Part shown: in pieces, positions 12,965-62,837 of the stretch | Layout: every line of letters starts with the position of its first letter | How positions within the stretch are numbered: the first letter of the stretch is position 1 | NCBI GenBank assembly: GCA_017484225.1 | Contig: JAFUTN010000034.1 | Span: 17,844 to 81,843 of the forward strand | Source of the DNA: Alphaproteobacteria bacterium | Lineage (GTDB): Bacteria; Pseudomonadota; Alphaproteobacteria; RF32; CAG-239 | Reading direction: 5' to 3' | Length of the DNA stretch: 64,000 nt | Notes under the pieces: model-generated | The model's database searches: none | Told to the model about the DNA's origin: nothing | The model's input: the letters and a program-made list of their open reading frames with translations, nothing else | Translations under genes and position numbers: made by a program

Positions 12965-13921
12965 ATGAAAAAATTTAGAAACACAGGAAACGTCATTGCG
13001 ATGAGGCGTTTTAACGCCGACGTGGCAATCTCCCTCATCAAGGAAAGTATGAATAAAGAATCCTTATTTACAAGAGCCGCTTGTTTTTGGAGATTGCTAC
13101 GCCTGCGGCTCGCAATGACATTTTCTACTCTTACGTTTGTTTTGAGCCTTGGCACGGTGAGCGAATCGTGGGCGGCGTGTGTTGGGGCAACCGCCACTAC
13201 TGCCGGCACCGATGAGGACGGCGATTACTGCGGCACATGGGATTGCGGCGCTACCGGCAGCAACGTTACCTGTACCCTTTCCAAAGGCACTCTTACCATT
13301 TCCGGAGAAGGCGAAATGAAAGATTATGGTGCTAGTTGGACAGGTTGTGGAACATGCTATCCTAAATCATTGAAAACAACGGCACCTTGGAGTGGAAAAA
13401 TGGCAACTAAAGCAGTTATTGAGGGAAATGTGACCAGAATCGGAAATTTTACATTTGCCGGTGAGAGTTATTTAACCGAAATCAGAGGGACTGAAAGCCT
13501 CATTTCCATTGGTAGCTCGGCATTCAATCGCGTGGGGCTAGTGAGTATAGATATTCCAAACGTATTAACCTTAGATAATGCAGCTTTTCATAGAGCTTCT
13601 GATTTACAATATATTAATATGCGTGACGATATAATTTTAACAAATAATGATTGGTTTGGATATATGAATGGTACATTTTTAAATGTTGATGTAGTAAAAA
13701 ACTCTTGCGTTAGCAATCCGGAAACCGGCATGAAAACTTGCGGGTCATGCGGGGATAAATTTGTTCAAGCAGGTGCAGGATGTGTGGATAATTGTTTTGA
13801 CGGGTATTATGCAACAAATTATGATTTGTGCGAAAAAATCAAACTTCGTTATACCTTACCGGAAGCAGATGCGGCAACATCTGACGACAATGAAAATACG
13901 ATTGAGTGGATTTTTGAGTAA
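12965..13921 (+). CDS. secreted BspA-type LRR / Cys-rich protein with conserved C-terminal tail (paralogue 1)
   Basis: RBS GGGAGAAAG. The hydrophobic signal-like segment sits unusually far in (AMTFSTLTFVLSLGTVSESWAA). Also present: the CTLSKGTLTISGEGEMKDY module, LRR_5-like repeats, a Cys-rich stalk and the tail RYTLPEADAATSDDNENTIEWIFE. Confidence 0.8.
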   Translation: MKKFRNTGNVIAMRRFNADVAISLIKESMNKESLFTRAACFWRLLRLRLAMTFSTLTFVLSLGTVSESWAACVGATATTAGTDEDGDYCGTWDCGATGSNVTCTLSKGTLTISGEGEMKDYGASWTGCGTCYPKSLKTTAPWSGKMATKAVIEGNVTRIGNFTFAGESYLTEIRGTESLISIGSSAFNRVGLVSIDIPNVLTLDNAAFHRASDLQYINMRDDIILTNNDWFGYMNGTFLNVDVVKNSCVSNPETGMKTCGSCGDKFVQAGAGCVDNCFDGYYATNYDLCEKIKLRYTLPEADAATSDDNENTIEWIFE

Positions 13922-14082
13922 TCAGCTTGGCGAAAATTTTTCCGCTTATTCCATATCATAGTTGGGAATCCGGTCAAATTTGTCACACAACGCCTGATAG
14001 GCGGCCGCAATATTTTTGAATTTTTCTTCCGCTTCCTTGTCATCTCGGTTGATATCGGGGTGATATTTTTTTGCCAACTTTT
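13799..14082. repeat. 284-bp segmental duplication, copy 1 (partner 15158-15441)
   Basis: Near-identical to 15158-15441 at a constant offset of 1359 bp, with a handful of substitutions. It covers the last ~40 codons of the paralogue gene, the intergenic spacer and the 3' end of the J-domain gene. Confidence 0.9.
13946..14082 (-). pseudogene. relic 3' fragment of the J-domain protein gene (duplicate of the 15305-15441 region)
   Basis: The minus strand reads ...[44 protein letters not shown], matching the last ~45 residues of CDS 15305-15886. Similarity stops abruptly at 14082 and there is no start codon or N-terminal part. Confidence 0.85.
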
Positions 14083-14143: not shown

Positions 14144-14360
14144 TTGACAACAAATTTTTTTATCTTTATACTCAAAACAGAACATAAAAAGTGTTCTGAG
14201 GTGTGGAAACCTCCTAGAATAATGAAGTGCTTTATGCGCTTTTCAGTTGTGTATGCATGACTGGAAGGCGGTGTAATAAGGCTATATTAATGGTTAAATA
14301 AACCGCACTAAATTCTAGTAGTTTCCAACTTCCAGTCGCTTTTTTAAAGCGATTTTTTGT
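14144..14360 (+). promoter_or_regulatory. promoter plus structured leader RNA, copy B, ending in an intrinsic terminator
   Basis: TTGACA (14144-14149), 17 nt, TATACT (14167-14172). Hairpin GAACA-TAAAAAG-TGTTC. Helices are TGGAAAC/GTTTCCA, CTAGAAT/ATTCTAG, CTGGAAG/CTTCCAG and GCGGT/ACCGC, the last with an ATAAGGCTAT loop. Terminator is CGCTTT-TTT-AAAGCG plus T6. Confidence 0.7.
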
Positions 14361-14392
14361 TTATCAAAATTAAATGGGAAAGGAAAACTAAG

Positions 14393-15280
14393 ATGAAAAA
14401 GATAATTTTTACAGTAATAATGCTTTGCTGTATAACAATAAAATCTATTGCAGATGATTCTGCACCGACATCCGGAACTTGCAATTCTTCCGGAACCTGC
14501 TTGTGGAATCTAAGCGAAGACGGAACCCTGACAATTTCCGCCAAACCGGGGGCGGAAGACGTTAAAACGGACAATTATCGCTGTGATGATGCCAGTGTAT
14601 CAATATGTCGTGAGAGAGGAACTCTTATTGAGAGGCCTTGGGAAGCGAATCTTGAACAAATTAAAAAGGTTGTTATCGGCGATAATATTTCATACATAGG
14701 TGATGATGCCTTTCAGCTGGCTTCAAATTTAAAATCGGTTACCGGCATGAATGATTTGCAATCTATAGGAAACTACGGAGTGTTTGCCTACACCGGTTTA
14801 ACAGAGTTTACTATGCCGGAAAACATTTCTACTGTCGGTAGTCGTGCTTTTGCCTATACTCCTTCATTGAAAAATTTAATTATTCCGGACCAAATTGAAA
14901 CCATAAGTGCAGATTTCTTTCAACATTTGTCTTCCGGTGCAAATATTACGTGCTTGGGAAATATTGCCTCCTGTAATGCAAAATTGGCAAAATTTTTTAA
15001 AAAAACAGATTGCCCTGAAGGTTTTACCTGTAATTGCACAAGTAACTGCATAAAAACAAGCCAAGTAAAACCGGCATCCGAGACTCAATGTATCGGAGTA
15101 AATTATTACTGGAACGGAGTAAGCTGCGATAATAAAAAAGACGGTATAAATTGTGCCGACGGGTATTATGCAACAAATTATGATTTGTGCGAAAAAATCA
15201 AACTTCGTTATACCTTACCGGAAGCAGATGCGGCAACATCTGACGATAATGAAAATATGATTGAGTGGATTTTTGAGTAA
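14393..15280 (+). CDS. secreted BspA-type LRR / Cys-rich protein with conserved C-terminal tail (paralogue 2)
   Basis: The track ORF starts at 14357 inside the leader terminator. The likely start is ATG 14393 (RBS GGGAAAGGAAAA), giving signal peptide MKKIIFTVIMLCCITIKSIA. Also present: the GTCNSSGTCLWNLSEDGTLTISA module, LRR_5-like repeats (IGDDAFQLASNLKSV, VGSRAFAYTPSLKNLIIP), CIGVNYYWNGVSC and the tail RYTLPEADAATSDDNENMIEWIFE. Confidence 0.85.
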   Translation: MKKIIFTVIMLCCITIKSIADDSAPTSGTCNSSGTCLWNLSEDGTLTISAKPGAEDVKTDNYRCDDASVSICRERGTLIERPWEANLEQIKKVVIGDNISYIGDDAFQLASNLKSVTGMNDLQSIGNYGVFAYTGLTEFTMPENISTVGSRAFAYTPSLKNLIIPDQIETISADFFQHLSSGANITCLGNIASCNAKLAKFFKKTDCPEGFTCNCTSNCIKTSQVKPASETQCIGVNYYWNGVSCDNKKDGINCADGYYATNYDLCEKIKLRYTLPEADAATSDDNENMIEWIFE

Positions 15281-15441
15281 TCAGATTGGCGAAAATTTTT
15301 CCGCTTATTCCATATCATAGTTGGGAATCCGGTCAAATTTGTCACACAACGCCTGATAGGCGGCCGAAATATTTTTGAATTTTTCTTCCGCCTCCTTGTC
15401 ATCTCGGTTGATATCGGGGTGATATTTTTTTGCCAACTTTT
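15158..15441. repeat. 284-bp segmental duplication, copy 2 (partner 13799-14082)
   Basis: See copy 1. In this copy the repeat runs into the intact J-domain gene. Confidence 0.9.
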
Positions 15442-23551: not shown

Positions 23552-23586
23552 ATTAACTTTTTTGATTTAATGAAAGGATGTTTGAG

Positions 23587-24480
23587 ATGAAACATTTAAG
23601 ATTTTTGAGTTTGGTTTTGTTAACGTGCGCAAATTCTGCTACGGCAGCCGAATTGCCCTTAAGCGGCAGCTGCGGAAACGGTTGTTTATATGAAATCACC
23701 ACCAATGCAAACGGCAAAAAAGATTTGCGGGTTTATAACGCCCCGACTTATGAAGGCAAGGCATATATAGCTAATGCAGCGTTTGCAAACAGCGGTGTAA
23801 ATGTTGCCAACAATTATGAAGAATACCATGAAAATGCCGTATTTGATAAAATAACGATTGACGGAGATTTTGATATAATAGGAGGTTCCGCTTTTGAACG
23901 TAACAGAGCAACGGAAGTTGTTTTCAACGGAAAGGTTAGGGAAATAGGATATGGAGCTTTTGAACAAAACAATCTTACCTCCATTGATTTACCGGAGTCT
24001 CTTGAAAAAATCGGCGGAGAGGCTTTTCATGCAAATCCGTTAACAACTTTGGTTATTCCGGATTCGGTAACAAGTTTTGGAAGTTTTGGTAGCTCTACAT
24101 TAGTAAATGTAACAATAACAGATACGCTGGAAAGTTTGGGAACTACTTATCCGTTTGGAGGCAACAGTAATTTATCTATTGTGTGCAAAGGAGATATTGA
24201 AAAGTGCAGAAGTTTGGTCAAAAAATATCGCCCAGATAATATTTCTACTGAAATAGACCTTTCCGGAAATGTTATTGCCGCAACTTATGAGCAATGTGAC
24301 GGGCAATATTTTTGGAACGGTATAGGCTGCGTAAAAGAGCCGGATATATCAAAACGTGCCTGCTGTCCGGTGTGTGCTGATTTAGACGGCTACTGCAGCC
24401 GTATTCGTTATACCTTGCCGGAGGCTGACAAAGCAACATCTGACGATAACGAAAATATGATTGAATGGATTTTTGAGTAA
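23587..24480 (+). CDS. secreted BspA-type LRR / Cys-rich protein with conserved C-terminal tail (paralogue 3)
   Basis: Signal peptide MKHLRFLSLVLLTCANSATA; the second ATG has the better SD spacing (AAAGGA). LRR_5-like repeats (IGGSAFERNRATEVVF, IGYGAFEQNNLTSIDLPESLEKIGGEAFHANPLTTLVIPDSV), CDGQYFWNGIGC...CCPVC, and the tail RYTLPEADKATSDDNENMIEWIFE. Confidence 0.85.
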   Translation: MKHLRFLSLVLLTCANSATAAELPLSGSCGNGCLYEITTNANGKKDLRVYNAPTYEGKAYIANAAFANSGVNVANNYEEYHENAVFDKITIDGDFDIIGGSAFERNRATEVVFNGKVREIGYGAFEQNNLTSIDLPESLEKIGGEAFHANPLTTLVIPDSVTSFGSFGSSTLVNVTITDTLESLGTTYPFGGNSNLSIVCKGDIEKCRSLVKKYRPDNISTEIDLSGNVIAATYEQCDGQYFWNGIGCVKEPDISKRACCPVCADLDGYCSRIRYTLPEADKATSDDNENMIEWIFE

Positions 24481-32973: not shown

Positions 32974-35900
32974 ATGTTGAAAAGTAAATTTATTTTCTCT
33001 GCCATGCTTTTAATGCTTTACGGAACGGCAAAGGCGCAAGAATTGGATATGGTTCCGGCTCCGAAGGTTCAGCAATCTCAAAAACAAGAAGAAGTGCCGC
33101 AAAATTCAAAGGTTGACGGAATAGCATTTATTGCTCCGACCAACAGCGTTAATATGGGAAAATCAGCATCAGAAGTTGTGATTACCCCGAAAGAAAAATT
33201 GGAATTTAAACAAAACGGTGAAGTTGAGGAAGCGCTTTTAAAAGAAGACGGGACTCCTTTTTCCGGTGCAACCGTTGTTACGGATGAAGAAGGTAGAGAC
33301 ATTACTTATTTTTATCGCAACGGCCGCAGAAGCGGTGTGGCGCTTTCCCATTTTGAAGATGGAAAGGTGGAGCTGGAAATTACTTACAGTAAAGGATATA
33401 AAAGCGGCGAAGAAATATTGTTCTATGAAAACGGTTATCCTAAATACAAAAAAACATACAGAAAAAATGTTTTGAACGGCGAAGAAATATTGTTCTACGA
33501 AAACGGTAAACCGGAACGCCGAAATATGTATGTTAACGGATTACTTGACGGTGAAATCAGTTATTTTGACCGCAACGGCAATTTGGTGAAAATAGAAAAT
33601 TACAAGTCCGGAAAAAAAGACGGAATTGAGCGTATAATAGAAAATAATCAGTTGTTGGAGGAAAATAATTATGTTGCCGGAGAACTGAACGGAATTACCA
33701 AAAAATATAACCGTGAACGCATGCTGGAAGAAATTGAATATAAAAACGGTAAAAGAAACGGAATAACAAAACGCTATTTGGATGATGGCGGCTGGGATGA
33801 GATTCCGTATAAAGACAATATGATAGAGGGTGTTGCAAAAAATTATTACCCGACCAAGCGTTTGGCAAGCATGACGCAATATGCCGTGAATATGAAAAAC
33901 GGACCAAGCGAAAAATATTATCAGAGCGGCAGTTTACAGCAGGCAGATAACTATAAAAACAATGTTCAAGAAGGTATCAGCCGAATGTTTGATGAAAGCG
34001 GAAATTTGCTGAGTGTCAGCTATTATGCCGGTGGTATTGAATTGGCAAAAGAAGATTTGCTTAATGATGCGGAAATCAAAAAAATTTATGATGCCGTGAA
34101 GGCAGATAAGCTTAATACCGTTTTGAATAACAAACAGTTATGGTATCCGGTTTTATGGCTCGGAATTTCTACCAACAGTCTGAAAATTTTGGATGAACTT
34201 GATAAAAGAATGAAAATGTATGCCACAAATATTGAAGATATTTCGGCGTATCAATCTAATTTGGTAAGGTTTTCCGAACAGAATCGCCGTTTGTTTTTCG
34301 GGCTTACACCGTTGAGTTATGCCGTAAATATGGCGTCTCCGGTGGAAATTTTACAGCGTTTTGCTTCCGGTCAGGATAGTGTGGAAATGAAAAACCCGCG
34401 CGGCGGATATGCAATTATTGAAGCGGTTCGTTTGAATAATTATGATTTAGTGCAATATTTGCTTTCTCATCATGCAGATGTCAAAAAAGTATATGATGAC
34501 GGTAACACCATTCTTTTGTATGCCGTAAAAGAAAAGGTTCGCAACGATATTATTGCAGCTTTGATTAAGGCCGGCGCAGACGTAAATGCGACAGATTCGT
34601 CGGGATACAGTTTATTAATGCTTGCCGTTCGTGACAACAATTTAGAGTTGTTGAAAGTGTTGCTGGATAATTATGCTGATTTTTCCGGCAAAACTCCCGA
34701 TGGCAAGAATATTCTCTCGTTTGCACTGGAAAATAATGCCTCAAAGGAAGTTTTGGAACAGTTGTTGATAAAGGGAGCTGATGTTAATGCAACAGATGAA
34801 GACGGAAGCGTTTTGATATTACGTGCTTTGGCGGCGGGCAAAGAAGATGTTGCAAAGTTGTTTATGCAATACGGTGCGGATATTAATGCCGAAAATGCCA
34901 ATCACGATACGGTCTTGACGTATGTGTTGGAAAACAAAACCGGAGATGATTTTGTTGCCGATATTTTTACACACAGTCTGGATGTTAAAAACAATTTGCC
35001 GAAATACAATAAACCTTTGTGGAAAATTTTGGCGGAACAAAACAAAATTGACTTGTTGAAAATTGTTTTGCAAAACATGGGTGGCGGTGCGGTTGCTGAT
35101 GCCAACGGTGAAATTCCGGTGGTGTATGCAATGGATAATTCCGAAAACCAAAAATTGAAAGAGGTTATTTTTGCGGCTCTGAATGAGGCGGTATTGAAGT
35201 CTCATCCCGAATTTTTGTGGAAAGCCGTGAAGGATAAAAAGTTTGATTTGTATAAGGAATTGCTGCAAAAGAAAAGTTCCGTCAATGTTACGGATGAAAA
35301 CGGTGACAGCCTGCTGCTTTATTTGATTAAAAACGAATATCCGTTTGAATATATTACGGAACTGGAAAATTATGCCGAGCTTGATTATATGGCAAAAGAT
35401 GCAACGGGCAAAACTGCACTGCAAATTGCCATAGAGGCGGATAATACCGCTTTGGTTGAAAATTTGCTGGCACACGGGGTTAGTCCCAATTCGGTTAATA
35501 ACGAAGGTAAATCTTTTATTGAAACACTTGACGGCAATCAGGAAAAAATTACCGAATTGTTATGGAATGCCGGCAGTAAAGATATGGTAACACCGGACAA
35601 TATTAACCTCTTGTTGCGTATCGCCGTTACAAATTTGAATGTTAAGTGGTTAGAGTTTTTGTTAAATGAGAATCCGGATGTGGCATACAAAGACGAAAAC
35701 GGAGAATATGCGCAAATGTATTTGGCTGATGCGCTGGAAAAGCATTCTGAATTACCTCAGGCCGAGATTTTAAACAAACTTGAAACCTGTTTCACCTTGC
35801 TGAAAGAGAAGGGGGCAGACATAAATTGGCAGAATAACAATGGAGAAACTTTGTTGATTAAGCTCTCCAAAGCAAAGAGTCAATACTACCCGTTGATTGC

Positions 35901-35997
35901 CGATTTGTTTGTGCGCTTAGGTGCTGATGCCGCCAAAAAAGACCAATATAACAAAACGGCGAAAGACTATGCTGTGGAATATTTGCCGGATATTTAG
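32974..35997 (+). CDS. secreted MORN(YwqK-type)-repeat and ankyrin-repeat protein
   Basis: Signal peptide MLKSKFIFSAMLLMLYGTAKA. About 10 YwqK/MORN-like repeats (YENGxxxxxxxYxNGxxxG) occupy residues ~100-350. Multiple ankyrin repeats follow (GYSLLMLAVRDNNLELLKVLLDNYAD, DGSVLILRALAAGKEDVAKLFMQYGADINA, and others) through to the C-terminus. Confidence 0.85.
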   Translation: MLKSKFIFSAMLLMLYGTAKAQELDMVPAPKVQQSQKQEEVPQNSKVDGIAFIAPTNSVNMGKSASEVVITPKEKLEFKQNGEVEEALLKEDGTPFSGATVVTDEEGRDITYFYRNGRRSGVALSHFEDGKVELEITYSKGYKSGEEILFYENGYPKYKKTYRKNVLNGEEILFYENGKPERRNMYVNGLLDGEISYFDRNGNLVKIENYKSGKKDGIERIIENNQLLEENNYVAGELNGITKKYNRERMLEEIEYKNGKRNGITKRYLDDGGWDEIPYKDNMIEGVAKNYYPTKRLASMTQYAVNMKNGPSEKYYQSGSLQQADNYKNNVQEGISRMFDESGNLLSVSYYAGGIELAKEDLLNDAEIKKIYDAVKADKLNTVLNNKQLWYPVLWLGISTNSLKILDELDKRMKMYATNIEDISAYQSNLVRFSEQNRRLFFGLTPLSYAVNMASPVEILQRFASGQDSVEMKNPRGGYAIIEAVRLNNYDLVQYLLSHHADVKKVYDDGNTILLYAVKEKVRNDIIAALIKAGADVNATDSSGYSLLMLAVRDNNLELLKVLLDNYADFSGKTPDGKNILSFALENNASKEVLEQLLIKGADVNATDEDGSVLILRALAAGKEDVAKLFMQYGADINAENANHDTVLTYVLENKTGDDFVADIFTHSLDVKNNLPKYNKPLWKILAEQNKIDLLKIVLQNMGGGAVADANGEIPVVYAMDNSENQKLKEVIFAALNEAVLKSHPEFLWKAVKDKKFDLYKELLQKKSSVNVTDENGDSLLLYLIKNEYPFEYITELENYAELDYMAKDATGKTALQIAIEADNTALVENLLAHGVSPNSVNNEGKSFIETLDGNQEKITELLWNAGSKDMVTPDNINLLLRIAVTNLNVKWLEFLLNENPDVAYKDENGEYAQMYLADALEKHSELPQAEILNKLETCFTLLKEKGADINWQNNNGETLLIKLSKAKSQYYPLIADLFVRLGADAAKKDQYNKTAKDYAVEYLPDI

Positions 35998-38705: not shown

Positions 38706-39569
38706 TTATTCAAAAATCCATTCAATCATATTTTCATTGTCGTCAGATGTTGCCGCATCCGCTTCCGGCAGGGTGTAACGTTTGCGTAAACATTCGTTAT
38801 ATATGTCGTCATAAGCATAACCGGCTCCACAGCCTGTTCCTTCTCTGATGCAGGTATTATCTTTCAGCACATAGCCCGTTCCGCAGCCTTCCGTATCGTT
38901 TATACATTTCATTTCTTTGCCTAAATAACCGCTTCCGCAGTCAGAAACACATTCAGCTGATTTTACAAAACCGTCACATTTTTTAACGGTTTTTCCGCAA
39001 AGAGAAGTTCCTTGAAAATTTGTGCCGACAAAAATATTATTTGCCGGCAGATTGTTGCCACTAGCACAATTTATCGGTGCTGTTCCTTGATATAAAATCA
39101 CGGCACCGGACGGAACGGAAGTGAAAGCTCCTGTGCCGATAATTTCAACATTCGGCATCTCAACGGACTGTAAGGCAGTGCAATAAAAAAAAGAATCATA
39201 AGGTATTTCCTTAACATCTTTCATTCCCGATACGGTTTTTACGTTTGAGGCATTTTGAAATGCATTTTTGCCTATTTTGGAAATATTGTCTTTAATTACA
39301 ATGTTTTGAATTTGTTTTATATAGTCTTCCCAAGGGCGATTGCCGGCAAGAGCCGAGCAAGTTGAAGCACCTTCGCAAACATAATCATCCATAGACACAT
39401 TTTCAGTTCCTTCAGCGGCGGAAACGGTTAGCGTTCCGGAGGAATCTATTTCCCATAAGCAGGTTCCGCTTGAATTACAAGTGCCGGATACATTTGCATA
39501 AGTGTTTACGGAATACATCATTGATAAAAAAGTAAAATTAAGCAATTTAAAATGTTTCATATCAAACAT
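38706..39569 (-). CDS. secreted BspA-type LRR / Cys-rich protein with conserved C-terminal tail (paralogue 4)
   Basis: Signal peptide MKHFKLLNFTFLSMMYSVNTYA, the SGTCNSSGTCLWEIDSSGTLTVSA module, LRR_5-like repeats (IGKNAFQNASNVKTVSGM), four CxxGY Cys-rich modules, and the tail RYTLPEADAATSDDNENMIEWIFE. Confidence 0.85.
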   Translation of the reverse strand: MFDMKHFKLLNFTFLSMMYSVNTYANVSGTCNSSGTCLWEIDSSGTLTVSAAEGTENVSMDDYVCEGASTCSALAGNRPWEDYIKQIQNIVIKDNISKIGKNAFQNASNVKTVSGMKDVKEIPYDSFFYCTALQSVEMPNVEIIGTGAFTSVPSGAVILYQGTAPINCASGNNLPANNIFVGTNFQGTSLCGKTVKKCDGFVKSAECVSDCGSGYLGKEMKCINDTEGCGTGYVLKDNTCIREGTGCGAGYAYDDIYNECLRKRYTLPEADAATSDDNENMIEWIFE

Positions 39570-39593
39570 CCTTTCATTAAGTTAAAAAGTTAA

Positions 39594-39825
39594 CAAAAAA
39601 GCCACCTGAAATGGTGGGCGGATGTTGAGAAACCGTACTAAACTAAACGGCTCGGCGTTTTCGCGCTCATAGCCTTATCAAGCCGACATCCGCTCAAATT
39701 TGAACGAATCATCGGAAAAATATTTAATGCCGTGTTGCGGCAAGTTTAGTAAAGGGTTCTCACGCCCTGAAGTGCGTTTTTTCGCACTCTGAAATCAGGT
39801 TATCAAAATATCGCCGTAATGTAAA
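39594..39825 (-). promoter_or_regulatory. promoter plus structured leader RNA, copy D, ending in an intrinsic terminator
   Basis: On the minus strand: TTTACA (39820-39825), 17 nt, TAACCT (39797-39802). Hairpin AGTGCG-AAAAAA-CGCACT is followed by TCAGGGCG. Helices are TGAGAA/TTCTCA, TACTAAAC/GTTTAGTA, GGATGT/ACATCC and CGGC/GCCG, the last with an ATAAGGCTAT loop. Terminator is CCACC-ATTTCA-GGTGG plus CTTTTTT. Confidence 0.75.
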
Positions 39826-44740: not shown

Positions 44741-44769
44741 TTTGTGTCCTTTTAACCATAAAGTTTAAG

Positions 44770-61706: not shown

Positions 61707-61930
61707 TTTACAATCAAACATTGTTCTGCTATTGTTCATTCAGGACGTGGAAAAAACACGTTTCAGGGCGTAGTAACCCTTATACATGAATTTAGCGATA
61801 TTTAATCGTGCTGATGTTCGCATATTTTGTGAGCGGATGTCAGCCGAATAAGGCTATGCCAAATAGGCTGAGCCGTTTTCATGTATACGGTTTACTAACA
61901 TCCGCCCGCCATTTCGGTGGGATTTTTTTT
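61707..61930 (+). promoter_or_regulatory. promoter plus structured leader RNA, copy E, ending in an intrinsic terminator
   Basis: TTTACA (61707-61712), 17 nt, TATTGT (61730-61735). Hairpin ACGTG-GAAAAAA-CACGT is followed by TTCAGGGCG. Helices are TAGTAA/TTACTA, TATACATGAA/TTCATGTATA, GGATGT/ACATCC and CAGCC/GGCTG, the last with an ATAAGGCTAT loop. Terminator is CCCGCC-ATTTC-GGTGGG plus AT8. Confidence 0.75.
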
Positions 61931-61964
61931 GTTAACTTTTTACTTTAAGAAAAGGATGTATGAA

Positions 61965-62837
61965 ATGAGATATTGCATTTTGGGGATTTTAAGTTTGTTT
62001 TTTACGATTGGGCAGGCAAATGCCGAGGTTATAAGCTGCAATAACGGCAAATATGCGGACGGGACGGATTGTGTGTCCTGCGGAGCGGATTGTAACTGGA
62101 GTGTGGACTTGACAAGCGGAAAGCTTACGGTCAGCGGAAGCGGAAATATGAATAATTACCGTTTTTATACGGAAGATGACATAAATTATTCGTCCGCGCC
62201 GTGGGGAGGCTATAAAGACCGGATTACAGCAGTAGAGGTATCCGGAATGAACAGTATAGGTTCGTGTGCATTCTGCCATTTAGCTGTCAACAGCATACAA
62301 ATGGATGATTCCGTTAAAAAAATAAATGACAGCGCTTTCGCATGGAATGGTCGCGGTGCATCATCTGTTACTATGTCCGACGCATTAACGGATTTAGGCC
62401 ATATTGCTTTCAGAGGAAACAGCAGACTTAATACCCTTATCGTGCCGGCAACGTTAACGAATATCGGTTTAGGAGCGTTGGGTGGCAATAAAAACTTAAT
62501 CAAAGATATGAACATAGTATGTATGGGCGGCAAGCAAGAATGTGCATTGTTGCAAGAACGTTTACAAAACTATCAATTTTACGGTCTTGATTATTCAAGG
62601 GAGGTTTTGGACTTGTCCGCCAACGTAAGACTTGCCGGTGCCGAGGAATGTTTTTCAACAAATTATTATTGGAACGGGGCCGAATGTTTGAAAGAACCGG
62701 TATTGGCAAATCGTTTGTGTTGTCCGGAGTGTAAGATGATTGACGGAGAGTGTTACCGTGTTCGTTATACTTTGCCGGAAGCGGATGAGGTGACGTCCAA
62801 TGATAATGAGAATCTGATTGAATGGATATTTAATTAA
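61965..62837 (+). CDS. secreted BspA-type LRR / Cys-rich protein with conserved C-terminal tail (paralogue 5)
   Basis: The track start at 61917 lies inside the leader terminator. The likely start is ATG 61965 or 61956 (AAAAGGA), giving signal peptide MRYCILGILSLFFTIGQANA. Also present: the CGADCNWSVDLTSGKLTVSGSGNMNNY module, LRR_5-like repeats, CFSTNYYWNGAEC...CCPEC and the tail RYTLPEADEVTSNDNENLIEWIFN. Confidence 0.85.
   Translation: MRYCILGILSLFFTIGQANAEVISCNNGKYADGTDCVSCGADCNWSVDLTSGKLTVSGSGNMNNYRFYTEDDINYSSAPWGGYKDRITAVEVSGMNSIGSCAFCHLAVNSIQMDDSVKKINDSAFAWNGRGASSVTMSDALTDLGHIAFRGNSRLNTLIVPATLTNIGLGALGGNKNLIKDMNIVCMGGKQECALLQERLQNYQFYGLDYSREVLDLSANVRLAGAEECFSTNYYWNGAECLKEPVLANRLCCPECKMIDGECYRVRYTLPEADEVTSNDNENLIEWIFN

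Follow-up and report, generated by a model that had tools for sequence, protein, structure and literature searches.

Locus 4, one of five related genes on a 64,000-nucleotide stretch of an alphaproteobacterial genome (GCA_017484225.1, contig JAFUTN010000034.1, positions 17,844 to 81,843; hereafter the window), encodes a protein with a leucine-rich repeat (LRR) head, a Cys-rich stalk and an invariant C-terminal tail. The 24-residue tail, RYTLPEADAATSDDNENMIEWIFE (38709..38780, minus strand), occurs in 92 genomic copies and matches at the profile level the C-termini of the type IVb pilins of the lineage. Codon analysis strongly supports that it is kept by selection on the peptide and not by copying of DNA. 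Truncated pilins, which stop before the corresponding element, are encoded beside tail genes. The tail probably completes such a truncated pilin by strand complementation, so that a type IVb pilus would display LRR heads that are interchangeable; this reading is drawn from sequence and analogy and is of moderate confidence.

Distribution of the tail family

The window copies are located at 12965-13921 (copy 1), 14357-15280 (copy 2), 23578-24480 (copy 3) and 61917-62837 (copy 5) on the plus strand and at 38706-39569 (copy 4, locus 4) on the minus strand. The initial annotation described copy 4 as the only one on the minus strand, which is true within the window; genome-wide, tail genes use both strands. 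The tail motif within three mismatches yielded four matches in the window versus none in 100 shuffles. The genome (1.48 Mb, 39% G+C, 57 contigs) harbors 92 tail-bearing open reading frames (ORFs), comprising 90 full-length genes and two fragments, and the family represents about 5% of the genome. One of the 40 relatives searched, 24 of them from the same genus, carries the family. When the search was later widened to the order, four genomes of the genus proved to carry the complete module.

Tails are uniform within a genome and differ between genomes. Variants in the same bacterial family are RIQYTPAEAAKVLTDDNNNSVTITFKK in the same genus, the basic RVIYTIDEANKVAGKTNSVKIRYR in another genus and KTKYSVSEAEAASTDGSTNSVSWTFE in a third genus. 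The passengers that carry them are of LRR, Cys-repeat or low-complexity type. A second homologue search with the basic variant retrieved eight proteins only, all of them LRR proteins from the same kind of metagenome-assembled genome. No Pfam or NCBIfam model matched any variant. Comparison with PDB sequences yielded a single chance match (E = 7.8).

The tail of locus 4 is strongly negatively charged and has no hydrophobic stretch. LPXTG/sortase, PEP-CTERM/exosortase and GlyGly-CTERM/rhombosortase signals were rejected on the basis of a missing transmembrane segment, a missing basic cluster and no match to a sorting domain in NCBIfam or Pfam. The C-terminal domain of the type IX secretion system, a beta-sandwich of about 70-100 residues, was rejected as well: the conserved part comprises 24-28 residues, and Por_Secre_tail/TIGR04183 did not match.

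By eye, the tail resembles the 27-residue foldon of phage T4 fibritin (Y-x(1,2)-PEA, 12 residues, EW[VI][LF]), a self-association module that would trimerise the LRR proteins. hhalign assigned 0.1% to this likeness, and no PDB sequence matched despite the hundreds of foldon fusions in that database. Foldon identity was ruled out on these two results. Variants of other genomes lack PEA and W, and self-association would not demand identity among paralogues. A role of the tail as a trimerising module is very improbable.

More than 115 near-identical nucleotides follow the stop codons of copies 1 and 2 (13922-14050 and 15281-15400), and the pair therefore arose by tandem duplication including the flank. 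Copies 3, 4 and 5 have nothing in common after the stop codon. Copy 1 encodes an unusual N-terminal extension of about 50 residues, MKKFRNTGNVIAMRRFNADVAISLIKE..., ahead of the hydrophobic signal segment.

Selection on the tail

The initial annotation proposed peptide-level selection from the tail codons of copies 3 and 4. Its codon strings are exact and contain eight synonymous codon differences, one replacement (AAA/GCG, K/A) and the same stop codon. Nei-Gojobori counts over 24 codons in all 4186 pairs of the 92 tails confirmed the proposal. The proportion of synonymous differences (pS) was 0.656 and that of nonsynonymous differences (pN) 0.084, resulting in a dN/dS of 0.057 with silent sites near saturation. 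The invariant Ser is encoded by TCN in 52 tails and by AGY in 40. A switch between these codon families is impossible by one silent step, so the mixture counts for selection on the peptide. The invariant Tyr is encoded by TAC in 47 tails and TAT in 45, and the Asp codons are distributed 46 to 46.

Concerted evolution offers a different explanation, in which gene conversion homogenises the 3' ends of the paralogues and no special constraint acts on the peptide. Identical tail DNA was found in none of 4005 pairs (90 tails), and tail pS remained at 0.57-0.67 irrespective of the identity of the adjoining stalks. BLASTN of locus 4 against the genome detected similarity only in the leader and signal peptide (70-83%) and in the tail (78-94%), ending at the stop codon; thus the tail is at most 94% identical to that of any paralogue. 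The gene bodies of the 40 closest paralogue pairs showed a pS of 0.47, a pN of 0.19 and an omega of 0.30, versus 0.55, 0.04 and 0.04 in the tails. Silent divergence of the tail is like that of the body, and replacement divergence is about five times lower. Conversion of tails would give the opposite pattern and is therefore excluded.

Near-identical mosaic tracts do occur between some paralogues, which would favor conversion. They cover heads and stalks, joining even different leader types, and not the tails. The mature coding parts of C34:16703-17536 and C47:20246-21070 (contig and positions), and those of C7:73283-74287 and C36:33507-34424, are 98-100% identical, while the leaders and signal peptides of the same two pairs are unrelated (30-58% identity). 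Recombination therefore moves heads and stalks between expression cassettes. A second point in favor of conversion is a silent diversity below the codon-usage expectation in the last nine tail codons (window 38709-38735; all 92 copies). Silent heterozygosity of the whole tail reaches 72% of that expectation, with less freedom in the last nine codons: ATT accounts for 91-93%, TTT for 100%, GAA for 97% at one Glu, and GAG for 59-78% at two others versus 18% genome-wide. This skew could reflect a nucleotide-level constraint or the stop-codon context. Concerted evolution of the tails is already refuted by the codon analysis, leaving it hardly any probability. The earlier statement that recent gene conversion alone is insufficient was borne out.

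Relation to type IVb pilins

In genomes with few tail proteins, pilin-like proteins whose N-terminus reads QSGRSM[IV]EMLGVLAIIGVLS are encoded directly before the tail genes. The pilin-like proteins possess a class III signal, GRSMIEMLGVLAIIGVLS, with Gly at -1 and Glu at +5, followed by a long N-terminal helix, and match the Pfam families PilS and Bundlin. A full-length paralogue was modelled by AlphaFold with a predicted local distance difference test (pLDDT) value of 81 and ends in a hairpin, a helix and a final strand. Foldseek identified TcpA in the toxin-coregulated pilus filament (8uhf, TM-score 0.62), CofA and Salmonella Typhi PilS as similar structures. As Pfam, AlphaFold and Foldseek agree, the pilin-like proteins of this lineage are type IVb pilins.

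The C-terminus of the full-length pilins consists of a Cys-loop hairpin, a helix and the final strand, with the pattern ...PMxVxxAxxxC...NxVxWK[FY]Y. Two profiles, one of 20 tails and one of 29 pilin C-termini, were aligned by hhalign over their whole length (probability 94.5%, score 28.3, 28 columns). The score was 27.2 after removal of two sequences hand-picked for their likeness. Controls with 200 column shuffles reached 12.5 at most, and a reversed profile 5.8. The best match of the tail hidden Markov model (HMM) outside the family in this genome was the C-terminus of a pilin (E = 0.03). One pilin of this genome ends in ...DENSIMWVFN. A striking likeness is present in genome G043, where the tail reads ...STDGSTNSVSWTFE and a pilin ...NGSGSTNSVAWKYY. 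An extension of the homology into the last CxxGY loop (pilin 'CSSGTGYAYCLKK' versus 'CGAGYAYDDIYNECLRK') was visible by eye only and was rejected after hhalign gave 23% with an unstable null.

Truncated pilins of 141-170 residues contain no Cys and stop before the hairpin-helix-strand element. Their genes are located immediately beside genes encoding a signal peptide, a passenger and a tail in six genomes of four genera: G043 (two pairs), G042, G103 (three pairs), G287, G241 and G295, the latter with a 524-residue LRR protein as passenger. The truncated pilin of the present genome (C13:6694-7158) comprises 154 residues, is Cys-free and lies 46 nt from a tail gene. It matches Bundlin with 33.6 bits (cut-off 22.3) and PilS with 29.8 bits (cut-off 22). 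The identical protein is encoded on 10 contigs from at least five samples and is therefore not an artefact. Cys118 and Cys181, near-invariant in the pilins, are absent from the truncated pilins and from the tails. A survey of the genus, covering the genomes among the matches listed, verified clearly truncated pilins in at least four genomes (G000, G246, G010 and G241), all of which have tail proteins.

These observations bear on a further explanation, in which the tail is a sorting or anchoring tag for machinery unrelated to pili, such as an outer-membrane anchor, a receptor like that of the beta-barrel assembly machinery for beta-signals, or a processing enzyme, and the pilin likeness is convergent. 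All variants have an amphipathic strand at the C-terminus, with Phe, Tyr or Trp as the last residue or close to it. Outer-membrane beta-signals have a similar amphipathic strand with a terminal aromatic residue. The uniformity of the tail per genome and its difference between genomes fit a tag as well. However, the sequence features and database searches given above exclude the LPXTG and PEP-CTERM types, the end-to-end profile alignment spans both helix and strand, and the repeated adjacency to truncated pilins would be left unexplained. Such a tag is decidedly unlikely.

The genome encodes one type IVb machine (C24:34480-43130) with TcpQ, a secretin, PilO, an ATPase (T2SSE) and a platform protein (T2SSF). 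Directly after the platform gene, in the pilS position of R64-type clusters, C24:42591-43130 encodes a 179-residue membrane protein with the tail-like end RYTSRDVCAIKENTLMWTFQ and no match in Pfam.

With a secretin in this single machine, a tail related to pilins may also serve as a recognition peptide for pilus-dependent secretion. It would bind a pilin transiently, and the LRR protein would be pushed through the secretin and released. Type IVb pili are reported to export Sec-delivered colonisation factors by means of a short linear peptide that binds a minor pilin (PMC6048534, PMC9565799, PMC10120004). However, the signal of these factors, TcpF and CofJ, is N-terminal and unrelated to pilin sequence. 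Secretion would leave unexplained why tail genes of four genera adjoin genes for pilins that lack exactly the tail-like element, and why both Cys are lost as a pair. This alternative is unlikely.

Proposed function of the tail

According to the strand complementation model, the product of locus 4 would be a Sec-exported protein consisting of a BspA-type LRR head, a stalk made up of four CxxGY hairpin modules and rich in disulfides, and the tail. The latter would supply in trans what the last helix and beta-strand provide in cis in the PilS/bundlin/TcpA-like pilins of this lineage. In the periplasm, the tail of any of the about 90 paralogues would complete the truncated pilin (C13:6694-7158) by beta-strand complementation. 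Pilin and LRR passenger may then be incorporated in the type IVb pilus of the C24:34480-43130 cluster, or be added at its tip, where the heads would act as adhesins. Each gene has its own promoter and terminator-containing leader, so the choice of heads made is presumably regulated. The peptide would be frozen while silent sites, heads and stalks diverge or recombine, because about 90 heads must fit one acceptor. The model would account for one frozen peptide, its difference between genomes, Sec export together with disulfides, and the disorder of the tail in a single-chain model. More tentative, and somewhat short of probable, is the complete arrangement of a split type IVb pilin, with one truncated pilin per genome that receives its C-terminal helix and strand from any of about 90 LRR adhesins, each gated by a leader.

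Several observations weigh against strand complementation. The likeness of tail and pilin is visible only in profile-profile comparison, and HMM-versus-sequence matches are weak. A wider automatic comparison including the last Cys loop reached 23% in hhalign with a noisy null. The co-occurrence of truncated pilins and tails in the genus holds for the surveyed set of genomes only. The tail provides about 24-28 residues for a gap of about 45-50 in the truncated pilins, which is no one-to-one fit. Most tail genes of this genome are scattered, and only one adjoins the truncated pilin. A second tail type in G103 is attached to LRR proteins that are not encoded beside a pilin. The tail of locus 4 was modelled by AlphaFold with low confidence, as a helix at residues 267-274 (numbering of the 287-residue frame) and otherwise coil. 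Such low confidence would be expected of a peptide folding on binding, yet it proves nothing.

The two tail types of G103, seen when loci L110 and L021 are compared with L054, L108 and L109, are '...NSVTINF' on small proteins beside truncated pilins and '...NNNTITFSW' on the LRR proteins. Two acceptor-donor systems may thus exist in one cell. At L037 of the same genome, pilins are cut right after helix and Cys.

Type IVb pilin-like genes are greatly expanded in sister genomes, with 95 copies in G043, 90 in G243, 43 in G020 and 40 in G256. The present genome, by comparison, encodes about six pilins and about 90 LRR proteins with the tail. The same pilus thus seems to be diversified by either of two routes, expansion of the pilin genes or of the LRR-tail genes.

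Head and stalk of locus 4

The ORF at 38706..39569 was confirmed as an open frame of 287 codons in the ORF list. The likelier start is the ATG at 39560, 9 nt inside this frame, because a ribosome-binding site, GAAAGG (39570-39575), is located 9 nt before it and the orthologue P0001 starts there (MKHFK). The resulting coding sequence (38706..39560, minus strand) comprises 284 residues and the stop codon (38706-38708). The N-terminus reads as a putative Sec-type signal peptide, MKHFKLLNFTFLSMMYSVNTYA (39495..39560), with basic N-terminus, hydrophobic core, small-x-small cleavage site and no lipobox.

An N-terminal cap and the LRR head follow (39003..39494). By Pfam cut-off and fold, the head is a member of the BspA-type LRR proteins. 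LRR_5 (PF13306) was the only family matched in the Pfam scan of locus 4 (44.7 bits, cut-off 27.7), and all five window copies pass its cut-off. The head was modelled by AlphaFold with a pLDDT of 80-98 (residues 30-150). Foldseek retrieved 4h09 (E = 2.6e-5), 6mlx (TpLRR), 4gt6 and 4fs7.

The stalk (38790..39002) was read from the sequence and contains the four consecutive Cys-bounded modules of the initial annotation at residues 195-257. They are CDGFVKSAEC (residues 195-204; 38949-38978), CGSGYLGKEMKC (208-219; 38904-38939), CGTGYVLKDNTC (226-237; 38850-38885) and CGAGYAYDDIYNEC (244-257; 38790-38831), all on the minus strand. The reported difference from copies 3 and 5 was also found, these having a CCPxC stalk. 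Stalks with several CGxGY modules form a minority class in this genome, with about 6-9 of 90 copies, the others showing different Cys patterns. This class is the one common to tail-bearing proteins of other genomes.

A suggested EGF-like or furin-like nature of the stalk was not substantiated and remains a visual impression. The stalk belongs to no Pfam family; its best matches (E = 0.26-0.57) were all under the cut-offs. An EGF-like, furin-like or ephrin-receptor-like identity is not supported by this result. Ephrin_rec_like/TNFR repeats (E = 1.7e-8) were detected in a tail-bearing relative of another species and are absent from locus 4. AlphaFold predicted small beta-hairpins with low confidence (pLDDT about 50). 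A fold search with the stalk is not meaningful, because the model of stalk and tail is unreliable at this pLDDT.

Leader RNA, terminator and promoter

A structured leader RNA precedes locus 4 on the minus strand (39576..39791, from the first helix to just before the ribosome-binding site) and consists of 5' hairpins and a core like that of c4 and sRNA-Xcc1 RNAs. The genome contains 58 full-length and 28 partial copies, nearly all before genes of the family. The same leader precedes the pilin gene at C37:39772. Copy 1 has the 3' part only (nhmmer positions 178-248). The 33 predicted pairs are 96.8% canonical in the 58 full-length copies, and 14 pairs show double changes; slid alignments gave 33-44% canonical pairs.

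The 3' core resembles the phage P1/P7 c4 antisense RNA and sRNA-Xcc1 in a closing helix, two inner hairpins and a CACC tail. Scores were below the gathering scores of Rfam, with 30.5 bits for sRNA-Xcc1 (RF02221, gathering score 53) and 21.4 bits for the c4 antisense RNA (RF01695, gathering score 45). A further difference is the arrangement as a cis leader with a terminator before about 60-85 genes.

A terminator scan located an intrinsic terminator within the leader (39595..39617, minus strand), about 20 nt before the ribosome-binding site. It reads CCACC-ATTTCA-GGTGG followed by T6, and the T-run is kept in at least 95% of the leader copies. A promoter-like site (39797..39825, minus strand) comprises -35 TTTACA, a 17-nt spacer and -10 TAACCT, compared with the family consensus TTTACA-N17-TAAAAT. 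It was not called by the consensus scan. The initial annotation assigned a full promoter-leader-terminator cassette to this copy. Leader, terminator and the conserved -35 element are present as described, while the -10 element is weaker than TAAAAT.

Orthologous locus

The orthologue P0001 is 97% identical to locus 4 and, like it, is flanked by metG and an alpha/beta hydrolase gene. The P0001 locus was found in GCA_017528285.1 and in an ENA assembly. Locus 4 and P0001 differ by eight replacement and four silent changes (omega 0.55), versus 11 replacement and 44 silent changes in four flanking genes pooled (Fisher p = 0.003). The replacements are located on the LRR face, in a loop and in one stalk linker. 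None affects a Cys or the tail, and all stalk Cys of locus 4 are kept in P0001. The 340 nt upstream of locus 4 differ from the orthologous locus by two substitutions and one indel.

Other features of the window

An alphaproteobacterial two-piece transfer-messenger RNA (44765-45102, minus strand, 220 bits) and a 6S RNA (51531-51687, minus strand, 66 bits) are ordinary and help to place the organism. A 1007-residue ankyrin-repeat protein, with Pfam families as listed for the orthologous locus, is encoded at 32974-35997 on the plus strand. An ORF of 2103 residues spans 45127-51438 on the minus strand.

Implications

The tail is a clean textbook case of peptide-level selection, with a dN/dS of 0.06 over 24 codons at saturated silent sites. 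Strand complementation, if true, would provide a testable reason for one of the most extreme peptide-level conservations in a paralogous family. One acceptor would serve about 90 donors that fill about 5% of a 1.5-Mb genome. A split pilin would allow plug-in variation of pilus binding, or of the antigen shown, without DNA rearrangement. Sister lineages would replace the LRR repertoire by expanding the pilin genes themselves, up to 95 copies. The tail would be a short, transferable peptide by which cargo could be attached to a pilin. The annotation of 'hypothetical LRR proteins' and pilin-like genes in abundant uncultured gut and rumen Alphaproteobacteria would change.

Comparison with known systems

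The donor-strand principle of chaperone-usher pili is similar in that a strand of a second polypeptide completes the fold of an unfinished subunit. The Ig-like fold and the machinery are unrelated, however, and the strand comes from the following subunit of the pilus instead of a passenger adhesin. In the R64 thin pilus, a type IVb pilus, the C-terminal segments of the PilV adhesin are switched by shufflon DNA inversion. R64 shares a PilN-type secretin, PilO, the PilQ ATPase, the PilR platform and the PilS pilin, as well as many binding specificities on one pilus. It varies the C-terminus of one minor pilin, whereas here the C-terminus is constant and about 90 separate genes have their own promoter and leader. 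Known BspA-type LRR proteins are anchored otherwise or unanchored; none has been described with this stalk, tail or pilin partner. The literature search retrieved no description of this tail or of an LRR-pilin pairing.

TcpF of Vibrio cholerae and CofJ of enterotoxigenic Escherichia coli are secreted factors that are reported to bind the minor pilins TcpB and CofB, respectively (PMC6048534, PMC9565799, PMC10120004). Both systems are of type IVb and resemble the proposed one in a Sec-exported soluble protein that is recognised by a pilin via a short linear terminal peptide. Their peptide is N-terminal and has no likeness to pilins, and its target in the full-length minor pilin is a lectin-type domain; each system has one substrate, versus a 90-gene family here.

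PilC/PilY1 is a Sec-exported adhesin with a short C-terminal peptide that is conserved more strongly than the variable remainder of the protein. About 10 residues of this peptide strand-complement the minor pilin PilK, whereas GspK of the type II secretion system (T2SS) has the strand in cis (Ellison et al., 2026, PMC12918778; Yount et al., 2026, PMC13711793). Complementation of this kind was reported in 2026 for type IVa, T2SS and Tad systems only. The likeness to the present system includes related pilins with the strand in cis and a partner without it. The differences are type IVb pilins in place of GspK/PilK, an element of about 24-28 residues with helix and strand versus about 10, and about 90 donors with one acceptor, as proposed here from sequence. 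The donors are small LRR adhesins without a beta-propeller; neither the Pfam scan nor the AlphaFold model of locus 4 (284 residues) showed one at the C-terminus. Completion of a pilin by an adhesin tail is thus a known principle in type IVa, T2SS and Tad systems, which complementation by the LRR tails, if true, would extend to type IVb pili. What is new is the setting in type IVb pili, the greater length of the pilin-derived element and the donor repertoire of 90 genes.

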